DNA from: an uncultured Verrucomicrobiota bacterium
GTDB lineage: Bacteria; Verrucomicrobiota; Verrucomicrobiia; Limisphaerales; DTLC01
Direction of reading: 5' to 3'
Assembly: GCA_964555645.1 (NCBI GenBank)
Contig: CAZKTA010000004.1
Coordinates: forward strand, 46,742 to 110,741
Length of the DNA stretch: 64,000 nt
Position numbers and translations under genes: made by a program. Of this stretch, positions 688-63,578 are shown piece by piece (the stretch's first letter is position 1; each line of letters opens with the position of its first letter). The notes beneath the pieces are model-generated. The model did not search any database and was not told where the DNA came from. It saw only the letters and a list, made by a program, of their open reading frames with translations.

Positions 688-694
688 ACGGCGC

Positions 695-776
695 GTCGGC
701 AATGGAGTTTGCCGACCCCGCGTGTATGCAATCGGGGTAAACCGCCTGAACCAGGTTCAGTGCTGATAACTCCTGC
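695..776 (+). ncRNA. Fluoride riboswitch (crcB motif)
   Basis: GGCAATGGAGTTTGCC...AAACCGC-CTGAAC/GTTCAG-TGCTGATAACTCCTGC matches the fluoride aptamer pattern. P1 is gtcggca/tgccgac, P2 is ctgaac/gttcag, and the pseudoknot is GGAGTT (704-709) with AACTCC (768-773). An extra hairpin accccg/cggggt occupies 715-738. Confidence 0.9.
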
Positions 777-782
777 CAAATA

Positions 783-36900: not shown

Positions 36901-39675
36901 CGGCTGGCGGACGGGGACTGGGCGCGGGTTGAGGTTTCGACCGATGGCAGTGGTTGGACGCCAGTGTATGGTGCTTGGGGAGTGCGGGAGAGCTGGCGCG
37001 AGCAGCAGATTGACCTCTCGCCGTGGAAGAACCAGAGCAACCTGCGCATCCGTTTCCGGCTGATCACCGACGGGAGCACCACCGAGGACGGCTGGAGCAT
37101 AGACGATGTGGTGGTGGCCGAGCAGGCGCCTGTGGCGGTGAGCCTGCCGTTTGTGGAGGGCTTTGAGTCGGGGCTGAGCAACTGGCTGGCGTCGAGCTGG
37201 GCTGTGGACACGAACAGTCCCTACGAAGGCAACTTAGCGGTGCGGGACGTGCCTGGGCGGATGAACCCGGACACAAGTTATGCGCTGGTGTTGGGCGGGG
37301 AATTGAACCTGAACAACGCGGTGAATCCGCAGTTGGTGTTCTGGGTGCGTGGGCAGTTGTGGTATCGGTCGCGTTTCCGGGTGCAGTATTCGACCGATGG
37401 CGGGTTGAGCTGGCCGGAGTTGACGGGGCTGAACTATGACTGGAATGCGGGCTGGACGCGGATGCAGGTGAGCTTGCAAGGCCTGATCAACCAGACCGTG
37501 CGGCTGCGGTTTGTGACGTGGTGCGAGTGGGGCAGCGCACCGGCCCAAAGCCTCTGGCTAGACAAGGTCGTCATCGAAAACTCGCCCCCGCCGGTCACCT
37601 TGGCCGCGCCCACCGATATCACGCCCAATTCGATGCGCCTGACCTGGACCGAAACGACGATCCCGAACTTCAAGGCGTATCGGGTCTATCGCTCGGAGTC
37701 GCCCGAACCGACCGAAAGCGCGACACTGGTCGCAGTCATCACCAACCGCGCCACCACTACATTCACCGACAGCGGGTTGATGGCGCGCCGGACCTATTAC
37801 TACCGCGTCTATCTCAACAACGAGAACGACACGAGCGTCGGCTCGAACCAGTCGTCCGCCATGACGACGGGTGTGGGACTGCCCTTCGCCGATGGCTTTG
37901 AAACCAACCAGTCCGGCTGGACGTTCACCGGCACGTGGTCGCGCGCGGCGGGCATCGGTCGCAACGGCTCGTGGGCTTTGCAGGATTCGGCGGGCGACTA
38001 TCCCAACAACGCCAGTCACTACGCGCAGTTCGCAGTGGATTTGCGCGGTCTCAACTGGCCGGTGCTGCGGTTCTGGGACCGGCACGCCTTCGCCGACAAC
38101 GACTGGGGTCGGCTCTTCGTCTCAGGCGATGGCGGCGCGAACTGGACCTGTGTGTATGGCGTCTCGGCCACGCGCACGGACTGGGCCGAACAGGCCATTG
38201 ACCTGTCGCCGTGGAAAAACTCCGGCCAGGTCTGGCTGCGTTTCCAGGTTAACAGCGACGGCGGCACGCAAAACGACGGATGGTATGTGGACGACGTGTC
38301 GCTGGCCGAGCACGTGCCTGCCGCCATGGTGTATCCGTTCCACGAGAACTTCGAGTCCGGCCTGGACAACTGGCTGCGCGCATCATGGACGTTGGACACC
38401 AACTTGCCCTATGCCGGGCAGGTTGCGGTGCGCGACACCGTGCCGCCGCGCATGCCGCCCGACGCGCAATTGGTGCTCGCGCTGGGCCGCCAGTTGAACC
38501 TGAGCAATGCCGTGAACCCGGCGCTGACCTTCTGGTTGCGCGGGCAGCTTTGGTATCGCAGCCGCTTCCGCGCGCAAGCCTCGACCGACGGCGGCCTCAA
38601 CTGGAGCGACCTGGTGGCTTTGAACAACGACTGGAACCAGAACTGGACGCGCATGCAGGTGCCGCTCACGACCTACACCAACCGCAGCATCCGCCTGCGC
38701 TTCATCGTGTGGAGCGAATGGGGCACCGCACCGGATCAGGATTTGTTCCTCGACAACATTGGCATCGGCGAACCCGCCCCCGGCGCGCCCACGCTGGCCG
38801 CGCCCGCAAACTTCACCATCGTCGGCGTTTCACGTCCGACACTGGTTGTGAGCAACGCCGTGGATTTCCAAGGCGACCCGCTGACGTATCGCTTCGAGGT
38901 CTATGCCGACCCGGCGCTCTCGCAGGTCGTCGCGCAAGTGCCGGCCATTGCGTCCGGCCCGCTCACAACCAGTTGGCAGGTGGACACCGACCTGCCCAAC
39001 AACACGCAATTTTGGTGGCGCAGCCGCGCCACCGACGGGACGAACACCGGCCCGTGGATGACCACGGCGACGTTCTACGTCAACGAAACCAACCGCCCGC
39101 CCGTCGCGCCGGTCATTGCTGGCCCGCCGCCGGGCTTGATGCTGACCAACCTCGACGTGCTGCTGCTCTGGTGGCCGTCGGCAGGTGATCCGGACGAAGG
39201 CGACCGCGTAGTGTCCTACAACATTCAGGTTGCGGACAATCCGGCGTTCGCGCTGCCGGTGATCAACGCCACGAATATTCCGGCCATCGAACTGCCGCCG
39301 GGCACAAACTGGGTGCTCAGCCTGCCGCTGAACAGCCTGCCCGGTGCGCAGAACTTCGTCTGGCGCACGCTCTATCACTGGCGTGTCAGCGCCCAAGACC
39401 AGCGCGGGCTTAGTTCGGCGTGGTCGGCGGCCTGGCCGTTGCAATACGGCCCGCCTGCGCCGCGCGCCGGCACCATCACTGCCATCCGACGTGAACCGGA
39501 TGGGAAGGTGACGTTGGAATGGACTGGCGCAGCCGGGTTCGTTTACGTCGAGTTCTCGCAGACATTGGACCCAGCGCAATGGTACACAGTGGCTGGGCCG
39601 TTGCATGGCACAAATTGGACATTTAGGCCCGTGCCAGGCATCCCAATTGGCTTTTACCGGCTCCGTGCTCAGTAA
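33913..39675 (+). CDS. Giant secreted modular protein: 8 jelly-roll (InhA/MAM/cleaved-adhesin-like) modules, about 6 FN3-like domains and a C-terminal domain
   Basis: Signal-peptide-like N-terminus; modules begin (Y/L)PF.(D/E).FE...W and end W..D(D/K)V; FN3 segments end TYYYR; terminus GFYRLRAQ. Confidence 0.85.
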   Translation: MRFHLVGRATARLGVGNLVLAGLILGAGSLNGSYPFFDNFESGLGNWSAGGTWGLTTVRYASATRSVTDSPGAFYTNNTDAALTLAGSIGLVGATRPALSFFHQYALETGYDFGRVEVSTNGGATWLPTPLAAYTGNLGTMSREQLDLSAYTGQANVRIRFRLVTDSSVVMDGWYVDDVLIAQAPPPVTLSATMTNRNSAALAWTASAAPDFAAYRLYRAMSPGVDWRTAGVVAEVSLASTTNLTDITLSPKTTYYYRLAVVSTNGLLTLGNEIAVTTHPGMDYPFVDNGEGGPNTWIADAPWALTTEQSASPTRAWSDSPGTNYANGIPSQSLTLAAPLFLAGNAVSPVLSFNHKYDFASGDSANVEISTNTGASWVTLASFTGTATNTWQRGRISLAAYTNATVLIRFRITTDPSANADGWYLDDISVAEAPTVVNAPVLDQVTSHSTRVSWPANTNQFFSHYAIFRSTAPGVGINSALVATISNRATTSLVDTNLALDTVYYYRVYAVNPWGTFSPDSPTESSTRTLNNPLPFGDGFEDSLQSWNLTGTWGRATNHARSGVACLSDSPGFNYGNNSDSSAQTAVNLAGSTWPVLKFWDRFRLADGDWARVEVSTDGSGWTPVYGAWGVRESWREQQIDLSPWKNQSNLRIRFRLITDGSTTEDGWSIDDVVVAEQAPVAVSLPFVEGFESGLSNWLASSWAVDTNSPYEGNLAVRDVPGRMNPDTSYALVLGGELNLNNAVNPQLVFWVRGQLWYRSRFRVQYSTDGGLSWPELTGLNYDWNAGWTRMQVSLQGLINQTVRLRFVTWCEWGSAPAQSLWLDKVVIEEMPAAVTLAAPVPGLRTVNLTWTPSTLGTAFKRYEVRRSTGPNVTWDSTLIGSFTNAAVTNLTDTGLSIGATYYYRVFTVDTNDVFIPSNERSTTTVPVLLPLTDAFDTTAQWVTTGSWGIAPSGRTGTCLSDSPTGDYANSTDTYAMTAVNLAGSTWPVLKFWDRFRLADGDWARVEVSTDGSGWTPVYGAWGVRESWREQQIDLSPWKNQSNLRIRFRLITDGSTTEDGWSIDDVVVAEQAPVAVSLPFVEGFESGLSNWLASSWAVDTNSPYEGNLAVRDVPGRMNPDTSYALVLGGELNLNNAVNPQLVFWVRGQLWYRSRFRVQYSTDGGLSWPELTGLNYDWNAGWTRMQVSLQGLINQTVRLRFVTWCEWGSAPAQSLWLDKVVIENSPPPVTLAAPTDITPNSMRLTWTETTIPNFKAYRVYRSESPEPTESATLVAVITNRATTTFTDSGLMARRTYYYRVYLNNENDTSVGSNQSSAMTTGVGLPFADGFETNQSGWTFTGTWSRAAGIGRNGSWALQDSAGDYPNNASHYAQFAVDLRGLNWPVLRFWDRHAFADNDWGRLFVSGDGGANWTCVYGVSATRTDWAEQAIDLSPWKNSGQVWLRFQVNSDGGTQNDGWYVDDVSLAEHVPAAMVYPFHENFESGLDNWLRASWTLDTNLPYAGQVAVRDTVPPRMPPDAQLVLALGRQLNLSNAVNPALTFWLRGQLWYRSRFRAQASTDGGLNWSDLVALNNDWNQNWTRMQVPLTTYTNRSIRLRFIVWSEWGTAPDQDLFLDNIGIGEPAPGAPTLAAPANFTIVGVSRPTLVVSNAVDFQGDPLTYRFEVYADPALSQVVAQVPAIASGPLTTSWQVDTDLPNNTQFWWRSRATDGTNTGPWMTTATFYVNETNRPPVAPVIAGPPPGLMLTNLDVLLLWWPSAGDPDEGDRVVSYNIQVADNPAFALPVINATNIPAIELPPGTNWVLSLPLNSLPGAQNFVWRTLYHWRVSAQDQRGLSSAWSAAWPLQYGPPAPRAGTITAIRREPDGKVTLEWTGAAGFVYVEFSQTLDPAQWYTVAGPLHGTNWTFRPVPGIPIGFYRLRAQ
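35668..37577 (+). repeat. Intragenic direct repeat, 2 x 731 bp (35668-36398 and 36847-37577)
   Basis: Offset 1179 bp. Alternate-frame ORFs in the two copies translate identically over the shared span, and the boundaries were read by eye. Confidence 0.92.
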
Positions 39676-42068: not shown

Positions 42069-44105
42069 TCACGGCGCAAGCTGCTTTACCGCTGTGTTCC
42101 CTGCGGTGTTTGTCATCACTAAGAAAACCGCGCCGTTTGCATTGACAAAAGCCCAATTCGTTTTCCCTCCCACACCCGTTGTGCTTACCGGTACCTCTGC
42201 CCACGGGATAGAGCTGAGCTGGGTTAGTGCAAGAAGGTTCGTCGCCACAATCGAGTTGGCGTGGATTCTCACAAATGAGTTCGAGCCGAATGTGTCACCC
42301 GAAGTAAAGGCCAGTCTGCGGCGTTCCAGATTTGTCGAGTTAAAGTATCCGTACAACCAGACACCATCAGTGTTGTTTGCGACTGCGTCTTGGGGGTTTA
42401 AGATTACGGCCAGCCGACCCCGAGAATGCATGTTTATGGCAGGGTGGTCGGCGGATGTGTAAGACTGGACCATGGCAGCCGCTCGATAGACCCATGTGTT
42501 GCCTGATTTTGATCGCCAGAAACCGTAATTGGCATTGCAGAACAGTTTTGCATTGGGACTTTCAGTTTCAAACCAGAGTGTGCCCGTGGACCCGTCGGGA
42601 GCCACATGTCCCCACCAATCATTTGGCGATGGCGCAAGAATCGTCACATTTAATTGTACTCCGGAACCCTTACCTAAAACCAGCGCATTTGTATTGCCGC
42701 CAACGGAGATTCTTCCGCCGAAAAAGTTAAGAGTCAAATTTGCGTCCGACACAATCATGTTTGTAGAAGCAAGGTGGCGTTCTATGTTGTTGTTGACAAA
42801 AGTAATTGTCCCGCCGCCACCGCCGAGAATTACAGGCCCGGTGTCCCCAATTTCGCAGTTTTCCACGATCAGACTTTTCAGTCCCGGGCCGTTTACTCTA
42901 ATACCCGGTATGTAACGCGGTTGGTTTTGCGCATTTCGGTTGTAGCCGATATTGCAATTTACGATGGACAACGAGTCTATCAGCCCCTCCAAAAGAATAT
43001 TTGCGTGCCCTTGATTGTAAATGTAGCAGTTTTCCAGTCGAATTGAACTTGGGCCGGATTGGTAAAAACCAAAACCAAAACCGCGAATACCGACGTTATG
43101 CGCAAAGAACTGCTCGCCATTTGCGGTGTAGTTGGCGTTGCTAATTGAAAGGCCGACGTTGACTACAGCACCGGTGGGTCCACTTAGCGAAACATCACGA
43201 ATCCACTGATTGTGAATGTAAGGAAAGCAAAGCCCGTTATACGATGGGTTGGTTTGAATTATCCGGCTTGCCCGCGGATTTTGTTCGTTATGGTTGTCTG
43301 ATCCGTCGCCGAATACATTCACAGCCCACGGGACTATTATGTTGGTGGAGATGTAGTACGTGCCTCCGGGAATATAGACTGTTGTTCCGTAGCCGCTTTG
43401 TTTTGCGGCGTTCAACGCTGCTTGTATAGCGGCTGAATCATCATTGGCATCACTGCCGTTGGCTCCAAACCAGCGCACGTCAATCCACCAGAACTGGTTG
43501 GTGCGCGCCACATTATGCGCCAAGCGTGCATCTGGTACAGTGCCAGAGACGAGTTGACTGGCATTGAGTGCGGTCAACCCAGCGCCATTGCCACTGAAGT
43601 GGTTAGCTGAGTTGACGAACGCGACTGCGCCGGTGTAAGTGCCGGCTAGGTTGGCAGATGGGATTATGCCTGTTAGTTGATTGGCAGGCAACAGACCGCT
43701 GAGTCTGCCCGCTGTAATTGCGTACGGGATGGGTGTAAGTTGCTGACGCGGTGAAAGCACAGTAAACTCAGCATCGCCGGTTGCGCGCACAGCAATTTCC
43801 AACCATCGGATGTCACCTGAGAAAACGCTTGGACCGAAATCTAACACGGCGGTGAGCAATCCATTTGTGACCCACAGCGTATTGTTTGTGATTGGGCCGG
43901 CAACGAGGACACCGCCGGTCGCAGCGTCGTAAATCGTAAATCGAAAATCGTAAAGTCCTTCTACAGGGACGCCGTTGGTGCTCAATCGGCCTTGGTAAGT
44001 GATAGCTGTGCCTTGAGCCAGCAGCCTGTGGCACTGCGCATTGAAGTGAAAACAAACTGCTAATGCAATGAGTAACCGTCGTGTTTTCGATTTGACTGAA
44101 GTCAT
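42069..44105 (-). CDS. Secreted fibre/tailspike-like protein with a pectate-lyase-3-type beta-helix
   Basis: Signal peptide; N-domain GTAITYQGRL...YDFRFTIYD...RWLEIAVR...PRQQLTPIPYA; short fibre repeats (ASQLVSGTVPDARL); beta-helix cap IDVRWFGANG...DDSAAIQAALNAA...VYIPGGTY. Confidence 0.75.
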   Translation of the reverse strand: MTSVKSKTRRLLIALAVCFHFNAQCHRLLAQGTAITYQGRLSTNGVPVEGLYDFRFTIYDAATGGVLVAGPITNNTLWVTNGLLTAVLDFGPSVFSGDIRWLEIAVRATGDAEFTVLSPRQQLTPIPYAITAGRLSGLLPANQLTGIIPSANLAGTYTGAVAFVNSANHFSGNGAGLTALNASQLVSGTVPDARLAHNVARTNQFWWIDVRWFGANGSDANDDSAAIQAALNAAKQSGYGTTVYIPGGTYYISTNIIVPWAVNVFGDGSDNHNEQNPRASRIIQTNPSYNGLCFPYIHNQWIRDVSLSGPTGAVVNVGLSISNANYTANGEQFFAHNVGIRGFGFGFYQSGPSSIRLENCYIYNQGHANILLEGLIDSLSIVNCNIGYNRNAQNQPRYIPGIRVNGPGLKSLIVENCEIGDTGPVILGGGGGTITFVNNNIERHLASTNMIVSDANLTLNFFGGRISVGGNTNALVLGKGSGVQLNVTILAPSPNDWWGHVAPDGSTGTLWFETESPNAKLFCNANYGFWRSKSGNTWVYRAAAMVQSYTSADHPAINMHSRGRLAVILNPQDAVANNTDGVWLYGYFNSTNLERRRLAFTSGDTFGSNSFVRIHANSIVATNLLALTQLSSIPWAEVPVSTTGVGGKTNWAFVNANGAVFLVMTNTAGNTAVKQLAP

Positions 44106-46338: not shown

Positions 46339-46728
46339 TTACGCCGATTCGATGATGATATTAGCATATTGGATAGTGTCGCCGGTTCGGATCAGGCCGA
46401 TTGCATGCGGCACACGTTTTTTGAACTGCACATGCGGTTCGTAATGCACTGGGATACCTTTCAGTGCCTCGGCAAAGGCAATTTGCACAGCTTTAGTATT
46501 GTGCAGTAGGAATTCTTTCGCCATCCATGCTTTGCCGATTACGAAGTTTGGTTTTATTGCCCTGAGCACTTGCAGCACGGTCGGCACATCGTCAACGAGC
46601 GATATGTCCACGGTCTCGATTTGCGGCCAAAATGGAAACCCCCTGTCGGCTATCACAAGTGCGTTAGTGTGCCGTACGCGGCTGAGTAAACTGTTTATGT
46701 GCGGATTGAGTATGCCTGACTTAAGCAT
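46339..46728 (-). CDS. RbsD/FucU family sugar pyranase/mutarotase
   Basis: MLKSGILNPHINSLLSRVRHTNALVIADRGFP, VDISL and IRTGDTIQYANIIIES. Start ATG 46728. Confidence 0.92.
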   Translation of the reverse strand: MLKSGILNPHINSLLSRVRHTNALVIADRGFPFWPQIETVDISLVDDVPTVLQVLRAIKPNFVIGKAWMAKEFLLHNTKAVQIAFAEALKGIPVHYEPHVQFKKRVPHAIGLIRTGDTIQYANIIIESA

Positions 46729-46851
46729 TGCACAAGGTTGTTTTGCGTGCATTATGATGAAAATGAATTGGATTTGGAAGTGCAAATATGGCAATTTAAA
46801 GCCCAACGCGACCTTGGTCGGCAGGAGTGTAAAAACCGGATACAAACGCTT

Positions 46852-47895
46852 ATGGAAACAAAACGTGTAATTGAAAAGGACCCCGAACTCAAAAAAGACG
46901 ACCTAATAGTTATAACTGGCGCAGGCGGATTCATTGGGGGCGCACTGGTGCGGTATTTCCACAACAAAGGATTTACCCGAATTCGCGCGGTTGATAAAAA
47001 ACCGCTTTCGGAATGGTACCAGCGTGTGCCAGGGGTCGAGTCGCTGTGCCTTGATCTGAGCCAGGAGGAAAACTGCAGGCGCGCCTGCGAAGGTGCAGTG
47101 GAGGTGTATCAACTTGCGGCTGACATGGGCGGCATGGGGTTCATCGAGCGGTTCAGGATCGAGTGTATGCGCAGCGTGCTCATAAACACGCACATGCTCG
47201 AGTCGGCGTACCGGGCAGGTGCACGGCGGTATTTCTTTTCGTCATCGGCGTGCGCTTACAACATTGCGTTACAGCAGGACCCGAATGTGCGCGCTTTGAA
47301 GGAATCGGATGCGTTTCCAGCAATGCCCGAGCGCGGGTACGGGTGGGAAAAATTGTACTCGGAACTGTTTTGCCAAGAGTACTGGGCCGAACGCGGCATG
47401 AAAACACTCATCGCACGGTTCCACAACGTTTACGGCCCGTTCGGTACGTGGGATGGGGGTCGTGAAAAGGCGCCCGCGGCGATTTGCCGCAAGGTGGTCG
47501 AAGCCATTGATAAAAACGACCTGCGAATTTCGATTTGGGGCGACGGTAAACAAACGCGCAGCTTCATGTACATAGACGACTGCGTCAAAGGCATTGACAT
47601 GATCATGCATTGCGACAAGCTGATTGCCACGCCGATCAACCTTGGCACAAGTGAGCTTGTCACAATTGACGAGTTGGTTAGCAAGGTTGAGCGAATTGCT
47701 GGGGTTACACTAAAGCGCGAATACGACCTGACCGCACCGCGTGGCGTGGCCGGGCGCAACAGCGACAATACCTTTATCAAGCAAGTGCTTGGGTGGGAAC
47801 CGAACACACCTCTGGACGTTGGCCTGCGGGTTACATACGATTGGATTAAAGAACAATACTACCGGCGCAAAGAAGGCAAACATGTTGTTGAATGA
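46852..47895 (+). CDS. Extended SDR NAD-dependent epimerase, GDP-mannose 3,5-epimerase-like
   Basis: TGAGGFIG, LAADMGGMGFI, SSACAY, YGWEK, RFHNVYGPFGTWDGGREKAPAAICRK, IWGDGKQTRSF and GRNSDN all resemble plant-type GME motifs. Start ATG 46852. Confidence 0.88.
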   Translation: METKRVIEKDPELKKDDLIVITGAGGFIGGALVRYFHNKGFTRIRAVDKKPLSEWYQRVPGVESLCLDLSQEENCRRACEGAVEVYQLAADMGGMGFIERFRIECMRSVLINTHMLESAYRAGARRYFFSSSACAYNIALQQDPNVRALKESDAFPAMPERGYGWEKLYSELFCQEYWAERGMKTLIARFHNVYGPFGTWDGGREKAPAAICRKVVEAIDKNDLRISIWGDGKQTRSFMYIDDCVKGIDMIMHCDKLIATPINLGTSELVTIDELVSKVERIAGVTLKREYDLTAPRGVAGRNSDNTFIKQVLGWEPNTPLDVGLRVTYDWIKEQYYRRKEGKHVVE

Positions 47896-48233
47896 CAGCG
47901 TGGCTTTAACCTTGGTGGTGGGCTTGGGAAACGGTGCGACGCATGTCTGGATCGAAAGGCGAATTTAAGCGTGGAATTTTCGGTTGGGGCGACCCGGTTA
48001 ATTGGCCATGTTGAAAAATTCGAATCGGCTCTGCCAATTTACCAGCGTCGGTTTGTAAATCATGACAGCCTTGCTTACGAGCCAGACGTGCGGTTTTAGT
48101 GGCGAAGTTTATGTTCGGCATTTGGGCTGAGCCACGATAGCGCGCATCAATGTTCACTAAACAACCTGAGGTCAGACTTGACCGCTTAATCCCAGCGCAG
48201 TAAGGCCACGTGCAACGCAGCAAAAATTTTACA

Positions 48234-49091
48234 ATGAAGTGTTCTGGCCAGCTTGACATCGCTCGGGTAATCGGTCGGATTCCGTACCGGATCGCCCTGG
48301 CAGGCGGTTGGATAGACCAGCCGTTTGTATCGCGGCACAATCCGGCCCCGCCCGGCTCGATGGTCGTGGTACAAATCGAGCCGACTTTTCGTGTGATGGA
48401 CCGCGCCGGGTTTGCCACCGGCACACGCGAGGTCGCGCTGCGACTTTGGAAGAGGCGGCTGCCGAAGAGGTCGCCAGAAAAGCTCGTGCGTGAGTTGTAC
48501 GAAGCTGAAAACAAAGGTAAAGCCGAGCCGAGCGGTTCACAGGACATGATCGGGTTGATTTACCCCGGGATTAACCGGCTCGATTACGATTTCGCCGTCA
48601 ATGGCGGTGTGTTCCCGGTACACATTGAGTCGTTGAATGACGCGCGCATTGCGCGGTGGCTCGAGCGTGTGCTGTATGTGTTGCCAGTCAACCAAAGGCC
48701 GGAAGGGTACAGCCCACTCGGCGTGAAAAATCTTGACCCGAAATGGATAGCGCGCCTTGGTCGGAGTGGCAGAGATTGTTTCGATGCGATTCGAAATTGC
48801 GATCTTAAAGGGCTCGGCGCCTCGATGAACGAATGCATGTTATGCTGGCAAAAGATTCTACCCTGTGTTGTACGGCATCCGACGATCAAGGTTGATCTTG
48901 TTGGATTATTACGTGTGTACCAGCAACGCTACCCGGGCGCGATGTTCTCCGGTTGTGGGGGCGGATATTTGTTTGTTGTATCAGACGAACCCGTGCCGGG
49001 CGCATTCAAGGTAAACATACGAATTGCAGCTAGCCACAACCTACCACCGCACATTCGCAATGGCCAGCGTAGGGCATTATCAGAAGGCTGA
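48234..49091 (+). CDS. Atypical GHMP-superfamily sugar kinase-like protein
   Basis: IPYRIALAGGWIDQP (compare HddA-type PxRIxxxGGGTD), SGSQDMIG and C-terminal SGCGGGY. The canonical GLGSS loop is replaced by RAGFATGT. Confidence 0.72.
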   Translation: MKCSGQLDIARVIGRIPYRIALAGGWIDQPFVSRHNPAPPGSMVVVQIEPTFRVMDRAGFATGTREVALRLWKRRLPKRSPEKLVRELYEAENKGKAEPSGSQDMIGLIYPGINRLDYDFAVNGGVFPVHIESLNDARIARWLERVLYVLPVNQRPEGYSPLGVKNLDPKWIARLGRSGRDCFDAIRNCDLKGLGASMNECMLCWQKILPCVVRHPTIKVDLVGLLRVYQQRYPGAMFSGCGGGYLFVVSDEPVPGAFKVNIRIAASHNLPPHIRNGQRRALSEG

Positions 49092-49130
49092 TGCCATGGG
49101 CAATCTTTGAATACCGAATCCCGCTAAAAC

Positions 49131-49985
49131 ATGCATGACCACGTCATAGTCACAGGCAGTTTCGACGACCTGCGCTCGAGCCAAGTTAGGTTTTTGCATG
49201 AGGCATCGCGGCTTGGGCCGGTGACAGTACTGATGTGGCCGGATGAACTGCTGGTGCGGCAGTTTGGTAGTCCGCCAAAGTTTCCCGAGCCGGAGCGTGT
49301 TTATCTAGTGGGTGCGCTTCGGTATGTTAACCGGGTGATTGTGGTTCCAGCGGGTTTGGCGGCGGGGGCAGGTTCGAATTTTTGGACTGAAATCGTTTCA
49401 TTCGCAAAACGGCTCGGGTTGGGACAGCTGCGATTGGTATTGAGGCAGTCGGAAGCTTCAGCTGACAAAGCCGCTGCGGCAGTTGGACATGGTATGGGCT
49501 ACACAATTATTCCCGACGATAAACTTGCTGGTTTTCCGGTGATTCAGCCAGAGTCGCGCGCAGATGAACCGCCGCGCAAAAAAGTGATCGTCACAGGGTG
49601 TTTTGATTGGCTCCATTCTGGTCACGTCAGGTTTTTTGAAGAGGTAAGCGCTCTGGGTGATCTGTACGTTGCTGTTGGTAACGATGCGAATGTGCGCATG
49701 CTCAAAGGGCCGGGGCATCCGCTGCATTCGCAGGACGAGCGCCGGTACATGGTGGCTTCTGTCCGGTACGTGAAACAGGCGCTCATTACGAGCGGCTCGG
49801 GCTGGCTTGATGCAGAGCCTGAGATTCTGTGGCTCAAACCTGACATCTATGCTGTGAACGAGGACGGTGACCGCGGCGGCAAACGCGAGTTCTGCAGGGC
49901 ACACGGCATTGAATATGTTGTACTAAAGCGCGAGCCCGCGCCGGGGTTACCCAGGCGCACTAGCACCGAGCTGCGGGGGTTCTAG
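49131..49985 (+). CDS. Tandem two-domain HxGH-type nucleotidyltransferase (RfaE/TagD-like)
   Basis: Domain 1 reads VTGSFDDLRSSQVRF (degenerate). Domain 2 reads VTGCFDWLHSGHVRFF...KPDIYAVNEDG...RRTSTELR. Confidence 0.88.
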   Translation: MHDHVIVTGSFDDLRSSQVRFLHEASRLGPVTVLMWPDELLVRQFGSPPKFPEPERVYLVGALRYVNRVIVVPAGLAAGAGSNFWTEIVSFAKRLGLGQLRLVLRQSEASADKAAAAVGHGMGYTIIPDDKLAGFPVIQPESRADEPPRKKVIVTGCFDWLHSGHVRFFEEVSALGDLYVAVGNDANVRMLKGPGHPLHSQDERRYMVASVRYVKQALITSGSGWLDAEPEILWLKPDIYAVNEDGDRGGKREFCRAHGIEYVVLKREPAPGLPRRTSTELRGF

Positions 49986-50169
49986 TTTGGTGGAGCTACA
50001 GTTAAGTCGACTGGCCCAAATGTGTCCCTGGGAGCCAAACCAAAAACTTGCAGTCAAAGAGTTTGCCCTGCAATATAATAAGCGCGCATGACAATTACTG
50101 TAGTCGCATCCAGCAGGACGGATTCGGCGGGGCATCGGAAACCCAAATGAAACCGGGAGAGTTTTGACC

Positions 50170-52278
50170 ATGACACACGTGTTTGCTGCAGCCACAGGTG
50201 GGTCAGCAAGTCTGCTGCGCCTGACGTTTATTGACCTTGTAATAATCGTTATTTATTTCGGTGCGGTTCTTGCCATTGGGTTTTACCTCAAGAAATACGC
50301 TCGCACCGGTGAAGATTTCTTTTTGGCCGGACGCAAAATGACGGCTTGGATCGCCGGTTTGAGTTTCATATCTGCTAACCTTAGCTCGCTCGAGACCATG
50401 GGCTGGAGCGCAATGGCTTATCAGTACGGTATGCTGGGCGCCCACGCATATTTCATCGGTGCGATTCCAGCCATTCTGTTTCTGGCGATTGTGATGATGC
50501 CGTTTTATTACATCTGCAGGACGCACTCGGTCCCGGGTTATCTGAAGTTGCGGTATGGCGAAGGCCCACGCGCAATTGCCGGGGTTACGTTCAGTTTCAT
50601 GACGGTAATGGTCAGTGGCGCGAGCATGTTTGCGATGGCAAAAATTTTGAATCTGTTGCTCGGCTGGAACATGAACGTGAGCATATGGGTCTCGTCGCTT
50701 ACAGTGGCGATCTACGTTGCGCTGGGCGGACTGCGCTCGGCGGTGTTCAACGAAGTGTTGCAGTATTTTCTGATCTGGGGTGGCTCACTCCTGATACCGA
50801 TTCTGGGTTTGATCGAGGCCGGCGGTTGGAACGGCATGATCCAGAAAATCCAGCAGCACGCCCCGATCATTCATCCTACCGTGCCAGATGCGGATTTCAC
50901 CAGTCTATGGCGCAATCTCGGCTCATTCGACACTAACCCGATGGGTATTGACTGGTTCGGTATGGTTTTTGGGCTGGGCCTGGCTGTGAGCTTTGGCTAT
51001 TGGTGCACGGACTTTTTGCAAGTCCAACGCGTGATGGTGGCCAAAGACCTCCGGTCCGCACAGAACGGCACGATTATAGGTGCGTTCCTCAAAATGATTG
51101 TACCGATTATTGTGACGATTCCCGGACTGCTTGGGCTTGCGGTCCTACTGAACGCGGACGGCTCACCCATGGTGCTTGTGCCAGAGCACGACCCGCGCGC
51201 AGGTATCACACACCATACATACAACGAGGTCTTGCCTTTGCTGATGGGTAAATATCTCGGGCCGGGCCTGCTCGGGCTGGGTGTGACAGCCATGATCGCC
51301 GGGTTCATGAGCGGCATGGCGGGCAACGTAAGCGCGTTCACGACCGTGTGGACGTATGACGTGTATCGCGCGTTATTGGTGAAGAACGCTTCAGATAAAC
51401 ACTACCTGCTCATGGGGCGGTTGAGCTCGATTGTAGGCGTATTGCTTTCGATAGCCACTGCTTACGCGCTGTTCTATTTCTCGAACATTCTGGAGTTTTT
51501 GCAAGTTCTGGTCTTTTTCTTCATCGTGCCATTGTTCGGTACGATTTTACTTGGCATGCTCTGGAAGCGCGCCACACCCGCAGGTGGCTTTTGGGGGTTC
51601 CTGACAGCGATCCTTGTCTCGATCTCGATGTGGGTTTTTGTGCATACTTTCCCCGACGGTCACCAGCCGCAACCGAAGGTCACGCTCAGCCGCGGCGCAA
51701 TTGTGAGCTTAGAAAAGGGTAGCGACGGTAAATTCAACACCATCATAGTTGAAAGCGGCGAAGTCGAGGTTGTAAACGTGGCCGGCTTACCGAAAGGTAA
51801 GGTTACCGCGCCGCTAACAATCCCGCCTAGGGTTGTTCAGAAAGATGCCGAAGTAAACGTGCAAGTGCTTGCCCCCGAGGTCGTTCTTTCGGACAAGCAG
51901 GAAAAGACCGGTTTCGGTGTAGATGCCATCCCGATTGTGCTTAAGCCTGGGGTGGAATTACAAACAGTGCAAATTACAAAGAAGTTCGCGCCCGCAGCGT
52001 TTAATCCGGCGCATACCAAGCTTATCGCCAGATCTGAGAAGGCAAAACCGATGGCTGTCAACATGTACAGCGCGTGGTGGTCTTTTGTAGTGTGCGTGTG
52101 TGTGACTTTTCTGGTAAGCCTGTTCACGAAACCGAAGCCGGAGCCAGAACTCAAAGACCTTGTAATGGGCCTGACTAAGCTGCCGGATGAAGGGCCGTGT
52201 CCGTGGTACAAGAAACCAATTCTGTGGGCGACTGTCTGCGCAGTGGTATTAGTGGCGATCAACATCATTTTCTGGTGA
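50170..52278 (+). CDS. Sodium:solute symporter (SSS/SLC5), sugar-type, with an inserted soluble domain
   Basis: EDFFLAGRKM, ISANLSSLE, VPGYLKLRYG, YVALGGLRSAVFNEVLQ, YWCTDFLQVQR, FTTVWTYDVY and GMLWKRAT. Confidence 0.93.
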   Translation: MTHVFAAATGGSASLLRLTFIDLVIIVIYFGAVLAIGFYLKKYARTGEDFFLAGRKMTAWIAGLSFISANLSSLETMGWSAMAYQYGMLGAHAYFIGAIPAILFLAIVMMPFYYICRTHSVPGYLKLRYGEGPRAIAGVTFSFMTVMVSGASMFAMAKILNLLLGWNMNVSIWVSSLTVAIYVALGGLRSAVFNEVLQYFLIWGGSLLIPILGLIEAGGWNGMIQKIQQHAPIIHPTVPDADFTSLWRNLGSFDTNPMGIDWFGMVFGLGLAVSFGYWCTDFLQVQRVMVAKDLRSAQNGTIIGAFLKMIVPIIVTIPGLLGLAVLLNADGSPMVLVPEHDPRAGITHHTYNEVLPLLMGKYLGPGLLGLGVTAMIAGFMSGMAGNVSAFTTVWTYDVYRALLVKNASDKHYLLMGRLSSIVGVLLSIATAYALFYFSNILEFLQVLVFFFIVPLFGTILLGMLWKRATPAGGFWGFLTAILVSISMWVFVHTFPDGHQPQPKVTLSRGAIVSLEKGSDGKFNTIIVESGEVEVVNVAGLPKGKVTAPLTIPPRVVQKDAEVNVQVLAPEVVLSDKQEKTGFGVDAIPIVLKPGVELQTVQITKKFAPAAFNPAHTKLIARSEKAKPMAVNMYSAWWSFVVCVCVTFLVSLFTKPKPEPELKDLVMGLTKLPDEGPCPWYKKPILWATVCAVVLVAINIIFW

Positions 52279-52286
52279 GGTAAACC

Positions 52287-52556
52287 ATGCACGAGCACGA
52301 TAAACAGATTCCAATTTGGTTTTTCATTGGCGCGTTACTGACGCTTTATGGGGTACTCATCTTTGGCGCAGGCATTTACGGGGCGCTTAATCCGCCGCCC
52401 GAGACGCAACGTGTTGCCCTTTGGCATCTGCATGCCGACATTTGGTGGGGCGCGTTACTTGCCGTGTTCGGCCTGATTTACGTCATCCGGTTCTGGCCAT
52501 CGAAGGAAGAAACCCTAACTGGGCTGGCCGAGCACCAACAGCAAAGCCGCAACTGA
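52287..52556 (+). CDS. Small two-TM membrane protein, probable accessory partner of the SSS transporter
   Basis: IWFFIGALLTLYGVLIFGAG...LHADIWWGALL; starts 8 bp after the SSS stop. Confidence 0.75.
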   Translation: MHEHDKQIPIWFFIGALLTLYGVLIFGAGIYGALNPPPETQRVALWHLHADIWWGALLAVFGLIYVIRFWPSKEETLTGLAEHQQQSRN

Positions 52557-57056: not shown

Positions 57057-57131
57057 GGCGCGTTCGTCTATCGGTTAGGACACGGCCCTCTCAAGGCTGA
57101 AAGATGGGTTCGATTCCCATACGCGCCGCCA
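57057..57131 (+). tRNA. tRNA-Glu (anticodon CTC)
   Basis: Acceptor ggcgcgt/acgcgcc plus GCCA, anticodon arm cggcc-ctCTCaa-ggctg, T-loop gttcgattc. Confidence 0.95.
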
Positions 57132-57805: not shown

Positions 57806-60187
57806 GTGAAAGCAAAGAAGGACACTTTTGACCACGTTTGGTTTGTATATGCGGGGTTGGCGCTGGCCACGTTGCTCAGCTATGCGCAAGTGATCAATTT
57901 CGGGTTCACCAACTACGACGACCCGTACATTGTGTGGCAAAATCCAGTTGTATCCAGCGGATTAACATTGCGCGGGACATATTGGGCATTGACAACCGGT
58001 TTTTTTGATTTCTGGCGTCCGATGACGTGGTTGTCGCACATGCTTGATTGTGAGCTGTTTGGGCTGCGTGGTGGCATGCATCGGCTAATGAACGTGTTGT
58101 ATCACACGGCAGGCACGTTGTTTCTTTTTCACGCGCTTAAGATAATGACACGCTCAGTATGGCGCAGTGCGGTTGTAGCTGGGTTATTTGCGCTGCACCC
58201 GTTGCGTGTCGAGTCGGTCGCATGGGTAGCCGAGCGCAAAGACGTGTTGAGCGGGCTATTCGCATTTTTGAGCATGGTATGTTACGCGCGCTATGCCGAG
58301 TTACAACGAACTGTTTCTTGCACGAGTGCGCAGCAGCACGGGTCGGTTGTGCAGAAAGTGCCGTGCAAAACGCGCAGTATGCGTTGGTACTGGGGATCAA
58401 TTGTGTTTTTCGGACTGGGTTTGATGAGCAAACCGGCGTTGGTAACCCTCCCTTTTGTGCTATTGCTATTTGACTGTTGGCCGTTGAAACGGCTGCCTTT
58501 GCCGACGCCGCAATCGGCAGTGGCGCCGGTCACAAAAGCGATGTGGTGTGGTTGGACGGAACTTGCGCGTGAAAAATGGCCATTTTTCATGTTGAGCATT
58601 GTATCCAGCGGGATCACGTACGCTGTGATGAAAGCCGGCGGGAACGTCCTGTCGGGTGAAGTTGTTCCTTGGGGGTTACGTTTGGCGAATGTGCCAATCT
58701 CGTACGTGCGCTATTTGATCAAGACAATTGTGCCGATCAACCTTGCGCCGTTTTATCCGATGCCCGACTCATGGCCAGTTTGGTATGTAGCAGGGGCAAC
58801 ATTGATTCTTTGTGCAGTAACGATAATTGCAATTCGGCTCGTACGGTCTGCGCCGTACATCATAGTTGGCTGGCTGATATTTTTGGGGATGCTTGTGCCG
58901 ACGATCGGGATAGTACAGATGGGGTATCACTCAATTGCGGACAGGTACACTTATTTGCCGTTGGTAGGTTTATTTGTAGCAGCGGTATGGGGCGGCGCGG
59001 ATTTGGCAACCAAATTACGTCTGCCCGTGTTTTTGACGTTTACAATAGGTGCCGCTGTACTTGGTGCTGCGGGGCTGTTGACCTGGCGTCAAGTCCGGCA
59101 TTGGCGGGATGACGTGTCGCTTTGGTCATGGTGCATTGCTGTTACGAAAAACAATCCAAACGCACATTACGGTCTGGGTCGTGCATACCACGAGTTAGGT
59201 CAGCTCGACAAGGCAATCGAACAATATCAGGCTGCATTGCAGCTTGAGCCAGGTCATCTTCTGGCCAACTTGAATCTTGGTGTGGTACTTGCCAGGCAAG
59301 GCAGGTTAACGGATGCAACCAACTACTTCGGTGCGGTATTGGCGCGTGAACCTAAGATGGTGGAAGCGCACTTGAACATGGGCAACGCACTGTTTCTGCT
59401 CAAAGACTACGCGGGCGCAACTAATCACTTCGCGCACGTGCTTGCGCTGGTTCCGCAGCATCCCGAGGCGCATCGTACGTACGCGGCAGCGTTGGTCGAG
59501 TTGGGTGATTTCAACAGTGCGCTTGGGCACGTTAATGAGGCAATCCGGCTGGTCCCAAAGGACGTTTGGCTGCATGTGTTCAAGGGGCGGGCATTGAGTG
59601 GTCTGGGCAGGTCAGACGAAGCTTTGGATGCCTATTTCACGGCACTGAACATCAACTATGAATGTGCAGAGGCGCATTTCTACCTGGCGCTTCAATGGCT
59701 CAAGCGCGGCCGGTTGCAGGATGCAATTGCAAGTTTCAAAGAGGCTGTGCGAATCAACCCGAGTTGGGCTGAAGCACATGTGCAGCTTGGTATCGTTTTG
59801 ACCACACAAGGCATGCTTGCTGAGGCAATCGCACATTACCGACAGGCATTGAGTCTCAGACCATACGATCCAATAGCGCTTAACAACCTTGCCTGGCTGC
59901 TGGCCACCACCGCCAGCCCACAGCTCAGAGATGGGAAAGAAGCGGTGCAGTTGGCCGAACGCGCCTGTGCGCTGACTGGCTACAGAGAAACAGTTTTTGT
60001 GGGCACACTTGCCGCTGCGTATGCTGAAGCTGGCCAGTTCGATAAGGCAGTGGAGACCGCACGGCGTGCCTGCGAACTTGCCGTTGCGCAGGGGCAAACG
60101 AACCTTTTGTTGCGCAACCAACAACTGCTTGAGCTTTTCAAGGCTGGGCAAGCCTATCATGGGGGTGCACCGAGGCAAACTGAATGA
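57806..60187 (+). CDS. TMTC-like GT-C membrane glycosyltransferase with a TPR array
   Basis: FTNYDD, FWRPMTWLSH, HPLRVESVAWVAERKDVL, SKPALVTLP and ADRYTYLP, followed by about 9-10 TPRs ending LNNLAWLL...GTLAAAYAEAG. Confidence 0.85.
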   Translation: MKAKKDTFDHVWFVYAGLALATLLSYAQVINFGFTNYDDPYIVWQNPVVSSGLTLRGTYWALTTGFFDFWRPMTWLSHMLDCELFGLRGGMHRLMNVLYHTAGTLFLFHALKIMTRSVWRSAVVAGLFALHPLRVESVAWVAERKDVLSGLFAFLSMVCYARYAELQRTVSCTSAQQHGSVVQKVPCKTRSMRWYWGSIVFFGLGLMSKPALVTLPFVLLLFDCWPLKRLPLPTPQSAVAPVTKAMWCGWTELAREKWPFFMLSIVSSGITYAVMKAGGNVLSGEVVPWGLRLANVPISYVRYLIKTIVPINLAPFYPMPDSWPVWYVAGATLILCAVTIIAIRLVRSAPYIIVGWLIFLGMLVPTIGIVQMGYHSIADRYTYLPLVGLFVAAVWGGADLATKLRLPVFLTFTIGAAVLGAAGLLTWRQVRHWRDDVSLWSWCIAVTKNNPNAHYGLGRAYHELGQLDKAIEQYQAALQLEPGHLLANLNLGVVLARQGRLTDATNYFGAVLAREPKMVEAHLNMGNALFLLKDYAGATNHFAHVLALVPQHPEAHRTYAAALVELGDFNSALGHVNEAIRLVPKDVWLHVFKGRALSGLGRSDEALDAYFTALNINYECAEAHFYLALQWLKRGRLQDAIASFKEAVRINPSWAEAHVQLGIVLTTQGMLAEAIAHYRQALSLRPYDPIALNNLAWLLATTASPQLRDGKEAVQLAERACALTGYRETVFVGTLAAAYAEAGQFDKAVETARRACELAVAQGQTNLLLRNQQLLELFKAGQAYHGGAPRQTE

Positions 60188-60240
60188 TCCCCTGATTTTG
60201 TGCTGTCTTTGCCGAGCGCGAGGATGAGGCCGGAGCAAAA

Positions 60241-60861
60241 TTACCGGACGTCTTCGCCCAGCTCGACGTTCCAGTAAGCGAGGTCAATGAAATGTTTCCA
60301 GCTATCGTGCTGGTACAAGTTGAGATTGATCTGTACGAACGGGCGCCACTTGGGCCGTTTGGGCTTTCGGATGAGCCGCATCCCAGCTTCCTGTGGGGTA
60401 CGGTTGCCCTTGCGCGCATTGCACTCGAGGCATGAACAAACCACGTTTTCCCACGTGGTTGGTCCGCCGCGGTCACGTGGTATAACGTGATCTAGATTAA
60501 GGTCCTGCCGTTGGAACACGCGTCCGCAGTATTGGCAAGTGTTCTTGTCCCGTTCGAAAATGTTATGCCGAGTGAACTTGACTTCTTTCTTTGGCAGCCT
60601 GTCGTAAACAAGCAGCAGAATGATGCGCGGCACGCGAATCCGAAAAGACACAGTGCGCACGCATTCCGGACTAGGATCGCGCTCGGAGAAATCGCGCCAT
60701 TCTTTGAAGTCGTATGTACGGAACGAGCCGTCCGGGCCGTTGACAACAACCTGCGCGTGGCCCTGGAACAGCAGGATCAACGCCCGTTTCACCGTGCAGA
60801 TGTTAACCGCTTGCCATAGGCGGTTTAACACAAGCACCTGCTGGTTCAACAACGCTACCAT
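60241..60861 (-). CDS. HNH endonuclease (McrA/HNH_5-like)
   Basis: VLVLNRLWQAVN, CQYCG and LNLDHVIPRDRGG..TWENVVCSC..CNARKGNR. Confidence 0.93.
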   Translation of the reverse strand: MVALLNQQVLVLNRLWQAVNICTVKRALILLFQGHAQVVVNGPDGSFRTYDFKEWRDFSERDPSPECVRTVSFRIRVPRIILLLVYDRLPKKEVKFTRHNIFERDKNTCQYCGRVFQRQDLNLDHVIPRDRGGPTTWENVVCSCLECNARKGNRTPQEAGMRLIRKPKRPKWRPFVQINLNLYQHDSWKHFIDLAYWNVELGEDVR

Positions 60862-60882
60862 ACCAACAGTAAAGCTCGGCTG

Positions 60883-60912
60883 AAGTTAGCATTTTGCGCA
60901 TTAAGATGTCAA
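60883..60912 (-). promoter_or_regulatory. Putative sigma70 promoter of the HNH gene
   Basis: Minus strand: TTGACA (60912-60907), 18 bp, extended TGcTAACTT (-10 at 60888-60883). Confidence 0.45.
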
Positions 60913-61027
60913 CGACGCCGAAAAAGTCACTAGCTTGCATGTACGCAGGAATGCAGGGGTGCAGCGGTTTGTCGGGGTTAGAAGAGATTTTTGTGGGTGG
61001 GACAACAGTGGTGTACGGCTGGCTTGT

Positions 61028-63394: not shown

Positions 63395-63578
63395 GCCACC
63401 GGCTGTAAAACAGTTTTTGTTTTCGATTGGCAGAAACTGTATCAAGCCCACGCTTCAACAGCACGTAATTTTGGTGTTTCTCATAAAGCCAATCGTTGCT
63501 CAGGAAAATCGTCAAAAAACGAAGATGCTCCGCGGCAGGAAGCGTGTTTCCGCCTGCAACAGCCGGCATCGGCAGAGT

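Follow-up and report, generated by a model that had tools for sequence, protein, structure and literature searches.

A conserved gene cluster of Verrucomicrobia with a predicted role in the activation of L-fucose-type sugars

We analysed a stretch of 64,000 nucleotides from an uncultured Verrucomicrobiota bacterium (assembly GCA_964555645.1, contig CAZKTA010000004.1), called the window in the following, and in it a cluster of six genes at positions 46339-52556. [quoted passage not shown] The cluster is a real and widely conserved predicted operon, which Verrucomicrobia and Planctomycetes from soil and freshwater have in common. It probably serves the scavenging and activation of a sugar with L-fucose configuration (L-fucose, L-galactose, possibly D-arabinose), with a non-orthologous counterpart of Fkp, the textbook enzyme of fucose salvage, to which a 3,5-epimerase is joined. 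The identity of the sugar and of the nucleotide, the direction of the flux and the fate of the product are predictions drawn from sequence and gene context. An earlier note on this DNA had suggested a route of import, anomer or ring conversion, phosphorylation, activation to a nucleoside diphosphate (NDP) sugar and epimerisation, and this logic holds, with phosphorylation at the anomeric position and a 3,5-epimerisation.

Conservation of the gene order

A scan for relatives of the kinase, with one genome per species, returned 569 relatives; the 81 non-redundant loci on which the following counts are based are the best 80 and locus L003. They come mostly from Verrucomicrobia, with some Planctomycetes and Acidobacteria and one cultured organism, Limisphaera sp. 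VF-2. The nucleotidyltransferase gene follows the kinase gene in 72 of the 81 loci with a median spacing of 2 bp, and orthologues of the epimerase (70-95% identity) are encoded immediately 5´ of the kinase in 60 of them with a median spacing of 18 bp. The same order in 60-72 of 81 species-representative genomes is an arrangement far beyond chance. Orthologues of the RbsD/FucU protein (63-92% identity) were found in 17-18 loci, mostly as the product of a fourth gene located right after the nucleotidyltransferase gene on the same strand, and the SSS gene with its small partner is linked to the kinase gene in only three loci (L005, L022, L077) and additionally in L089/L090. With these frequencies (about 22% and 3/81) the RbsD/FucU gene and the SSS unit are accessory and not part of the core. 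The conserved synteny expected from the earlier note was therefore found for kinase, nucleotidyltransferase and epimerase, and not for the two accessory parts.

Distant homologues of the kinase are fused to a cytidylyltransferase domain, classical Rosetta-stone evidence for consecutive steps catalysed by kinase and nucleotidyltransferase. Fusion architectures lacking a described function occur in the distant kinase homologues P0225, P0197, P0177 and P0150, and the types found combine the kinase with a nucleoside phosphorylase (PNP_UDP_1) and a cytidylyltransferase, with a GT2 glycosyltransferase, with an L-rhamnose mutarotase (RhaM) and a cytidylyltransferase, or with a tandem cytidylyltransferase. 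The fusion with RhaM mutarotase and nucleotidyltransferase is encoded on a putative Bacteroidota contig, where it adjoins a major facilitator superfamily (MFS) transporter and a glycoside hydrolase of family 29 (GH29), without an epimerase. Other distant nucleotidyltransferase-kinase fusions are located within a cluster of lipopolysaccharide (LPS) core glycosyltransferases (L086-L088). At a further locus (L093, 1276-9170) the fusion P0511 is accompanied by a second, stand-alone cytidylyltransferase, an ABC-2 exporter, sulfotransferases and genes for sulfate activation (PAPS [3´-phosphoadenosine-5´-phosphosulfate] reductase-like, CysN/C-like and inositol-phosphatase-like), and looks like a sulfated glycan or glycolipid cluster.

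Several other neighbours were considered as pathway members and rejected. Genes for a UDP-glucose/GDP-mannose dehydrogenase, tetratricopeptide repeat (TPR) proteins and a nucleoside diphosphate kinase (NDK), seen in the first two contexts, are lineage-specific, and the NUDIX gene of L001/L003 encodes MutT. A NudF-like NDP-sugar hydrolase gene 3´ of the nucleotidyltransferase gene (L089/L077) is present in only 2-3 loci and is not core.

The kinase

The kinase gene (48234-49091, plus strand) encodes 285 amino acids (aa), and its product can be described as a minimal anomeric sugar kinase of the GHMP fold that resembles L-fucokinase. No Pfam or NCBIfam model matches it at E<=0.01; the Pfam models GHMP_kinases_N and GHMP_kinases_C miss it, and weak GHMP_kinases_C matches were obtained only for some of the distant fused homologues. 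The AlphaFold2 model, made with 25 diverse homologues, has a two-domain GHMP fold with a predicted local distance difference test score (pLDDT) of 90 and a predicted template modelling score (pTM) of 0.87. Foldseek reported 124 PDB matches to this model at E<=1e-3, of which the top 50 were all GHMP members, headed by the heptokinase WcbL, the fucokinase domain of Fkp (9iip), GalK, mevalonate kinase and HddA-like proteins; the template modelling (TM) score to WcbL and Fkp is 0.63. The profile search with the kinase family placed the Fkp fucokinase domain first (E 4e-15), followed by heptose kinases (3e-9 to 3e-6) and then by mevalonate kinases. The GHMP-like kinase of the earlier note is thus confirmed in its fold, despite the missing Pfam and NCBIfam matches.

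In Fkp, β-L-fucose-1-phosphate is held by R592, W599, D601, T602, G759, Q761 and D762 (PMC11982464). HMMER aligns the motif P-x-R-x-x-x-A-G-G-W-x-D-Q-P of the kinase to Fkp residues 590-603. The residues R19, W26, D28, G101, Q103 and D104, which correspond to Fkp R592, W599, D601, G759, Q761 and D762, are invariant over the 25 diverse homologues, and the position of T602 is occupied by Q29 in the window kinase. Motif III reads S-G-C-G-G-G-Y (SGAGGGGY in relatives), compared to the canonical GAGGGG, and at the position of motif II, canonically GLGSSA, the sequence is G-x-A-T-[SG]-T-R. Judged from the model and the profile search, the kinase is a member of the GHMP superfamily that is closest to fucokinase, a much-reduced protein that curated models miss. 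Its predicted activity is the ATP-dependent 1-phosphorylation of β-L-fucose. The family is very large (7036 clusters among the scored candidates, more than 7000 homologues), and all members are annotated as hypothetical or are unnamed.

The nucleotidyltransferase

The next gene (49131-49985, plus strand) encodes a tandem nucleotidyltransferase of 284 aa with the HIGH motif of the cytidylyltransferase-like proteins. PF01467 matches at 8e-13 and covers only residues 153-265, that is, the C-terminal domain. TIGR00125 scores 61.6 bits (cut-off 27.7), and the more specific models rfaE_dom_II (E 2e-19, 69.8 bits, cut-off 181.5) and TagD (E 9e-14, 51.7 bits, cut-off 165.4) stay below their cut-offs, so that the protein does not have TagD or HldC equivalog status. 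The AlphaFold2 model (pLDDT 88.9) superposes with its whole chain on the tandem human ECT at a TM of 0.71 in Foldseek, and the single domains resemble HldC and TagD, the second being closest to HldC with 29-30% identity. The C-terminal domain has an invariant H162-S-G-H165 and a C-terminal motif R-x-S-T-x-L-R-G-F. The N-terminal domain has R-S-S-Q at the HxGH site (R-S-R-x in relatives), and since the HxGH motif is lost, this domain is probably degenerate and non-catalytic, leaving catalysis to the C-terminal domain. The tandem nucleotidyltransferase of the earlier note can therefore be kept as far as the tandem fold is concerned, but its first domain lacks the catalytic motif. Again the family is large (7258 clusters among the scored candidates) and is annotated as hypothetical or in generic terms as cytidyltransferase-like.

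The epimerase

The first core gene (46852-47895, plus strand) encodes a protein of 347 aa, an extended short-chain dehydrogenase/reductase (SDR; PF01370 at 1e-36) with a close match to characterised GME. It matches the plant GME structures 8sg0 and 2c59 with E-values of 2e-80 and 5e-80 over residues 45-378, which bears out the GME-like epimerase that had been read from the sequence earlier; about 50% of the aligned residues are estimated to be identical in plant GME. The residues regarded as diagnostic for GM35E are the triad S143/Y174/K178, the acid-base pair C145/K217 and R306, R243 and N203 (PMC8787198). In the alignment to plant GME all eight of these fingerprint residues are kept, in the segments SSSACAY, YGWEKL, RFHNVYGP, GGREKAP, GDGKQTRSF and GVAGRNSDN. 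The epimerase is thus of the GM35E type by sequence, and from this its specificity for GDP-sugars and its activity on GDP-mannose and GDP-L-galactose are predicted.

The RbsD/FucU protein, the symporter and its small partner

The RbsD/FucU-family mutarotase or pyranase (46339-46728, minus strand, 129 aa) matches PF05025 with an E-value of 1.5e-25 over profile positions 1-135 of 138. The true start of the gene is an inner ATG, which gives the coordinates above. With the NCBIfam model for D-ribose pyranase the window protein scores 91.7 bits, just below the cut-off of 93, and its orthologue in L089 scores 95. A ribose pathway was considered and rejected, because rbsK and rbsABC are neither in the window cluster nor recurrent nearby in the 81 loci.

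The SSS gene (50164-52278, plus strand) encodes an SGLT-type Na+/sugar symporter of 704 aa (PF00474 at 2.4e-49; TIGR00813 with 235.4 bits, cut-off 184), the best solved relatives of which are SGLT1, SGLT2 and vSGLT, and which would act as an accessory importer. It is followed by a gene for a two-helix membrane protein of 89 aa (52287-52556, plus strand) without a Pfam match. In all contexts that were looked at (window 50164-52556; L089, 7001-9329; L091, 7001-9410; L092, 7001-9479) such a gene for 72-89 aa follows the SSS gene at a distance of 8-11 bp, and its product is 53-89% identical in L005, L022 and L077. The two genes form a fixed unit that also occurs away from the operon. The small protein appears to be a small subunit, as yet undescribed, of a bacterial symporter of the SGLT type.

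Neighbouring genes and the identity of the sugar

The genes that recur next to the core in other genomes give an indication of the sugar. A GH29 α-L-fucosidase gene is present in 23 of the 81 loci, in 21 of them within 5 kb, and is located between the kinase and nucleotidyltransferase genes (five loci), between the epimerase and kinase genes (two loci) or right after the nucleotidyltransferase gene. An MFS transporter above the FucP equivalog cut-off was found in 7-8 loci, GH95 in 2-3 loci, a divergent AraC-family regulator in 27 loci and a ManC-type mannose-1-phosphate guanylyltransferase beside the operon in eight loci, all of which contain GME. The fullest versions are L089/L090, where AraC, RbsD/FucU, SSS, the small protein, GH3, GH29 and GH31 are encoded opposite to the epimerase, the kinase and the nucleotidyltransferase. 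A Pfam census of the 140 genes that directly flank the core yielded AraC 19 times, GH29 nine times, ManC-like proteins seven times, RbsD five times, and MFS and esterase four times each; no glycosyltransferase family was among the top 25 of this census, and no flippase or export gene recurs beside the operon in the clade of the window kinase.

The Fkp enzyme accepts L-fucose, L-galactose and D-arabinose (PMC11982464). Since GH29, GH95 and FucP recur and the Fkp-type fucose-binding residues are invariant, the predicted substrate is L-fucose or one of the closely similar sugars L-galactose and D-arabinose, and not an exotic sugar. This departs from the earlier note, which had proposed an unusual sugar destined for surface glycans. 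The destination, too, finds no support in the window clade, with its AraC regulators, glycosidases and transporters and without a recurrent glycosyltransferase, although the distant fusions do sit in clusters for glycan synthesis.

Proposed pathway

The following sequence of reactions would connect the gene products. The sugar would be released by GH29 or GH95 in relatives and taken up in free form by the SSS symporter and its small subunit, or by FucP in other genomes. The RbsD/FucU-type enzyme may then equilibrate anomers and ring forms to provide the β-L-pyranose, which the minimal GHMP kinase would phosphorylate at O1, giving the β-L-sugar-1-phosphate. From this and a nucleoside triphosphate, the second domain of the tandem nucleotidyltransferase would form the NDP-β-L-sugar. 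Finally, the GME-type enzyme could act at C3 and C5 and interconvert the L-galacto-configured nucleotide sugar and its D-manno-configured 3,5-epimer; the pairs would be GDP-L-galactose and GDP-D-mannose or, for fucose, GDP-L-fucose and GDP-6-deoxy-D-mannose. We infer GTP as the nucleotide since the fingerprint of GDP-mannose epimerases is retained in the epimerase, ManC recurs, and, to our knowledge, all known fucosyltransferases use GDP-fucose.

Several points weigh against this proposal. The GTP step is the least secure, because we know of no GTP-using member of the HIGH/cytidylyltransferase superfamily, which is known for the use of CTP and ATP; the product could thus be a CDP- or ADP-sugar, which a GDP-specific GME would refuse. 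In about a quarter of the loci there is no adjacent GME gene, in some of them with ample flanking sequence, so that the epimerase is not obligatory, and 3,5-epimerisation of GDP-L-fucose would lead to GDP-D-rhamnose, a product without an evident use in this context. In sequence, RbsD of known structure (4.5e-15) is a better match to the RbsD/FucU protein than a FucU homologue (0.009). The correspondence of kinase G101-S-Q103-D104 to Fkp G759-x-Q761-D762 is a match of motifs and not a residue-level structural alignment. In addition, the genes of the window are not tightly packed (with gaps of 338 bp between the epimerase and kinase genes and of 178 bp in front of the SSS gene), and this version of the operon contains neither an AraC nor a GH29 gene. 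The enzyme activities are predicted throughout.

Alternative explanations

The purpose of the activated sugar can be seen in two ways, catabolic or biosynthetic, which we regard as about equally probable. In a catabolic route resembling the Leloir pathway, which is possible but tentative, L-galactose would be converted via L-galactose-1-phosphate and GDP-L-galactose to GDP-D-mannose and further via mannose-1-phosphate and mannose-6-phosphate to fructose-6-phosphate. ManC would work in reverse and GME downhill, so that the plant Smirnoff-Wheeler (ascorbate) pathway would be run backwards for carbon assimilation. The enzyme set, with mutarotase, GHMP kinase, nucleotidyltransferase and SDR epimerase, parallels GalM, GalK, GalT and GalE, and the context looks catabolic (AraC, GH29, GH95, GH3, GH31, FucP and SSS, and no recurrent glycosyltransferase in the 140 flanking genes). 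ManC is adjacent in the eight loci mentioned above, each with GME. Furthermore, the equilibrium of GME favours GDP-mannose (100 g/L GDP-mannose yielded about 15 g/L GDP-L-galactose and 5 g/L GDP-L-gulose; PMC6678494), and L-galactose is accepted by Fkp-type kinases (PMC11982464). However, GH29 and FucP suggest L-fucose in the first place, from which this route can yield no central metabolite, most habitats contain L-galactose as a minor sugar, and operons with GH29 and without GME exist (L008, L020, L025). The NudF-like hydrolase is adjacent in 2-3 loci only, fused homologues are found in LPS or sulfated-glycan clusters, and the Akkermansia data discussed below have been read as biosynthetic by their authors (PMC13313206). 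[quoted passage not shown] This explanation, which we hold with similar reserve, agrees with the genetics of Amuc_1591 and the fucose found in Akkermansia LPS (PMC13313206), with the fusions inside the LPS-core glycosyltransferase cluster (L086-L088) and the cluster with sulfotransferases and ABC-2 (L093), and with the role in LPS synthesis assumed for the GM35E of Methylacidiphilum (PMC6678494). The kinase and nucleotidyltransferase units without GME imply that the pathway can stop at the NDP-sugar. In the clade of the window kinase, on the other hand, no glycosyltransferase, flippase or export gene recurs beside the operon, the neighbours that do recur are the AraC regulator, glycosidases and importers, and the position of GME as a translationally coupled first gene in 60 of the 81 loci would have no explanation.

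It might also be that the genes do not form one pathway at all and that glycerol-3-phosphate, phosphoethanolamine or heptose-1-phosphate is the substrate of the nucleotidyltransferase, or that the RbsD-like protein belongs to a D-ribose or D-allose pathway. The nucleotidyltransferase does have its best family scores with HldC/RfaE domain II, TagD and ECT, the RbsD-like protein scores essentially at the cut-off for D-ribose pyranase, and the heptokinase WcbL is the top Foldseek match of the kinase. But there is fusion or translational coupling of kinase and nucleotidyltransferase, the kinase is nearer in its profile to Fkp than to the heptose kinases (4e-15 against 3e-9 to 3e-6) and has retained the fucose-contacting Trp and Asp, and rbsK, rbsABC, tag and heptose genes are not among the recurrent neighbours, whereas GH29, GH95 and FucP are. 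We therefore consider unrelated substrates very improbable and prefer the activation of an L-fucose-type sugar. Should the catabolic route resembling the Leloir pathway be true, it would be an unrecognised route of L-galactose catabolism that is widespread in Verrucomicrobia, Planctomycetes and Acidobacteria and a new way for this sugar to enter central metabolism. In that case the cytidylyltransferase (HIGH) superfamily would have in the tandem enzyme its first sugar-1-phosphate nucleotidyltransferase that uses GTP, and a bacterial GME would work physiologically from the side of the L-sugar.

Layout of the locus and other features of the window

All six genes of the earlier note are present, with the RbsD/FucU gene divergent from a co-oriented run across a gap of exactly 123 bp (46729-46851, read directly from the sequence), and their coordinates could be refined. 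This divergent intergenic region presumably contains the promoters. A weak sigma-70-like match at 46729-46758 is no better than in shuffled controls, and scans for promoters and terminators gave no more sites than shuffled sequence. The spacer of 338 bp between epimerase and kinase genes (47896-48233) has no visible part in the mechanism. Spacers of about 340 bp are an unusual trait of the window and its closest relative L005, common to both in length and different in sequence. A regulatory RNA or gene remnant was considered for the 338-bp spacer and rejected, since it has no Rfam match, is not conserved in comparison to L005 and has a fold z-score of -1.9. It might be the scar of a lost gene, because GH29 occupies this position in L007 and L050.

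The cluster is flanked by unrelated housekeeping genes (TspO, a SnoaL-like protein and an ABC transporter; from translation only, also chorismate synthase and signal peptidase), and its boundaries are therefore as they had been drawn. Neither within the window cluster nor adjoining it is there a glycosyltransferase, an aldolase or rbsK/rbsABC, which agrees with what had been reported from the sequence. The region was found in DNA metagenomes only, from soil and hot springs, and a single metatranscriptome contains 7% of the sampled words. The window comes from a metagenome of soil or of a hot spring, and its organism is a verrucomicrobium of the Limisphaerales type.

Some features elsewhere in the window are of interest in themselves. 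A 678-aa protein encoded at 42069-44105 (minus strand) has a pectate-lyase-like β-helix (rhamnogalacturonase A/epimerase) and a signal-peptide-like N-terminus, and its gene is unlinked to the operon in other genomes. A hybrid sensor kinase of 1153 aa with Reg_prop/Y_Y_Y β-propeller domains is encoded at 16938-20399 (minus strand), 26 kb from the operon; hybrid sensor kinases of this type commonly sense oligosaccharides in polysaccharide-utilisation systems. A fluoride riboswitch (crcB motif, RF01734; 38.6 bits, gathering threshold 34) is located at 689-782 (plus strand), directly 5´ of an open reading frame for 409 aa (790-2019). A single open reading frame for 1920 aa (33913-39675, plus strand) encodes InhA-like MAM, Reelin subrepeat-B and fn3 domains; with 63% G+C, compared to about 53-55% elsewhere in the window, this block may be horizontally acquired. 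The region 57806-63451 has, on opposite strands, genes for two large TPR proteins of 793 and 807 aa, with a gene for an HNH endonuclease of 206 aa (60241-60861) between them, and a tRNA gene lies just 5´ of this region (57057-57128).

Comparison with known systems

The closest functional parallel is Fkp, with which the window system has in common the two-step logic of an anomeric GHMP kinase followed by a pyrophosphorylase, the GGW-x-D motif and the catalytic GxQD motif; the Fkp kinase domain is also the nearest solved relative of the kinase (E 4e-15). The differences are as follows: kinases of the window family have about 265-285 aa, compared to about 360 aa in Fkp, the transferase is HIGH/cytidylyltransferase-like (PF01467), whereas Fkp has an NTP_transferase domain (PF00483) and a β-helix, kinase and transferase are separate proteins, and an epimerase is joined to the operon. 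Because the pyrophosphorylase is of a different fold class and the kinase a much-reduced GHMP protein, the window system is not a member of the Fkp family, although it is analogous in its working. If our proposal is true, it would be a second, non-orthologous way of activating L-fucose-type sugars, present in polysaccharide degraders that are abundant in soil, freshwater and hot springs and poorly represented in culture. It would give a function to two very large families with more than 7000 clusters each, of which the kinase family is without a Pfam or NCBIfam model, and the compact pair of kinase and nucleotidyltransferase from thermophilic relatives could serve the production of GDP-L-fucose, GDP-L-galactose and analogues.

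A precedent for the kinase and nucleotidyltransferase comes from Akkermansia muciniphila, where Amuc_1591, a fusion of a nucleotidyltransferase with a fucokinase-like domain, has been proposed to be a fucose-nucleotidyltransferase with a role in LPS (PMC13313206, 2026). Suppressors of D-arabinose toxicity all map to Amuc_1591, and L-fucose or mucin restores growth (PMC13313206). The two domain types (adenylyl/cytidylyltransferase-like and fucokinase-like) and the phylum are the same as in the window system, and the link to L-fucose and D-arabinose is genetic. Fusions of about 380 aa with the architecture of Amuc_1591 are homologues of the window kinase with 35-47% identity; the link of the window family to Amuc_1591 is a putative one, drawn from the architecture. 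Amuc_1591 differs in being a single fused protein with one transferase domain that forms a transcription unit with murJ (PMC13313206); a linkage to GME, fucosidase or transporter genes is not reported there, and the evidence is genetic only. The claim that the pathway is undescribed is thus true in part: for the kinase and nucleotidyltransferase it no longer holds in full, and for the link to the epimerase it does. In the literature searched we found no description of the form with separate genes, of a transferase that is a tandem pseudo-dimer, of the linkage with a GME-type epimerase or of the context with fucosidase, FucP and AraC, nor of a bacterial L-galactokinase or a GDP-L-galactose salvage.

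The only characterised bacterial GM35E is that of the verrucomicrobium Methylacidiphilum fumariolicum, and its role in LPS synthesis was assigned from the gene neighbourhood alone (PMC6678494). Plant GME and the window epimerase have the fingerprint residues in common. In its known roles GME leads from GDP-mannose to L-sugars (for ascorbate and the cell wall in plants, presumably for LPS in bacteria), whereas the window epimerase gene is the first of an operon that also encodes a salvage kinase and a nucleotidyltransferase, and it has fucosidase genes near it in relatives, which suggests that its substrate arrives from the side of the L-sugar. This would be the first physiological context for a bacterial GDP-mannose 3,5-epimerase beyond the guessed LPS synthesis.

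The coupling of an anomeric sugar kinase to a nucleotidyltransferase is also known from the synthesis of ADP- and GDP-heptose by HldE or HldA-HldC and by HddA-HddC, and HddA and WcbL are GHMP anomeric kinases like the one described here. The window kinase, in contrast, keeps an invariant Trp at the position of Fkp W599, which stacks on fucose; heptose kinases have a glycine at this position. Furthermore, the window locus has no heptose-pathway neighbours, and its transferase is a tandem protein with a probably inactive first domain. The duplicated cytidylyltransferase fold is similar to that of human ECT/Pcyt2 (3elb, 4xsv), the best structural match over the whole chain, but the first domain of the window protein has lost HxGH, and its context is that of a sugar-1-phosphate and not of phosphoethanolamine. 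Finally, the Leloir pathway with GalM, GalK, GalT and GalE has the same four types of activity in one locus, namely mutarotase, GHMP kinase, nucleotidyl transfer and nucleotide-sugar epimerisation by an SDR enzyme. The proteins are not orthologous, the epimerisation takes place at C3 and C5 in the window system and at C4 in the Leloir pathway, and the nucleotide would be attached by pyrophosphorylase chemistry in place of the UMP exchange of GalT; a catabolic role like that of the Leloir pathway is putative for the window system.

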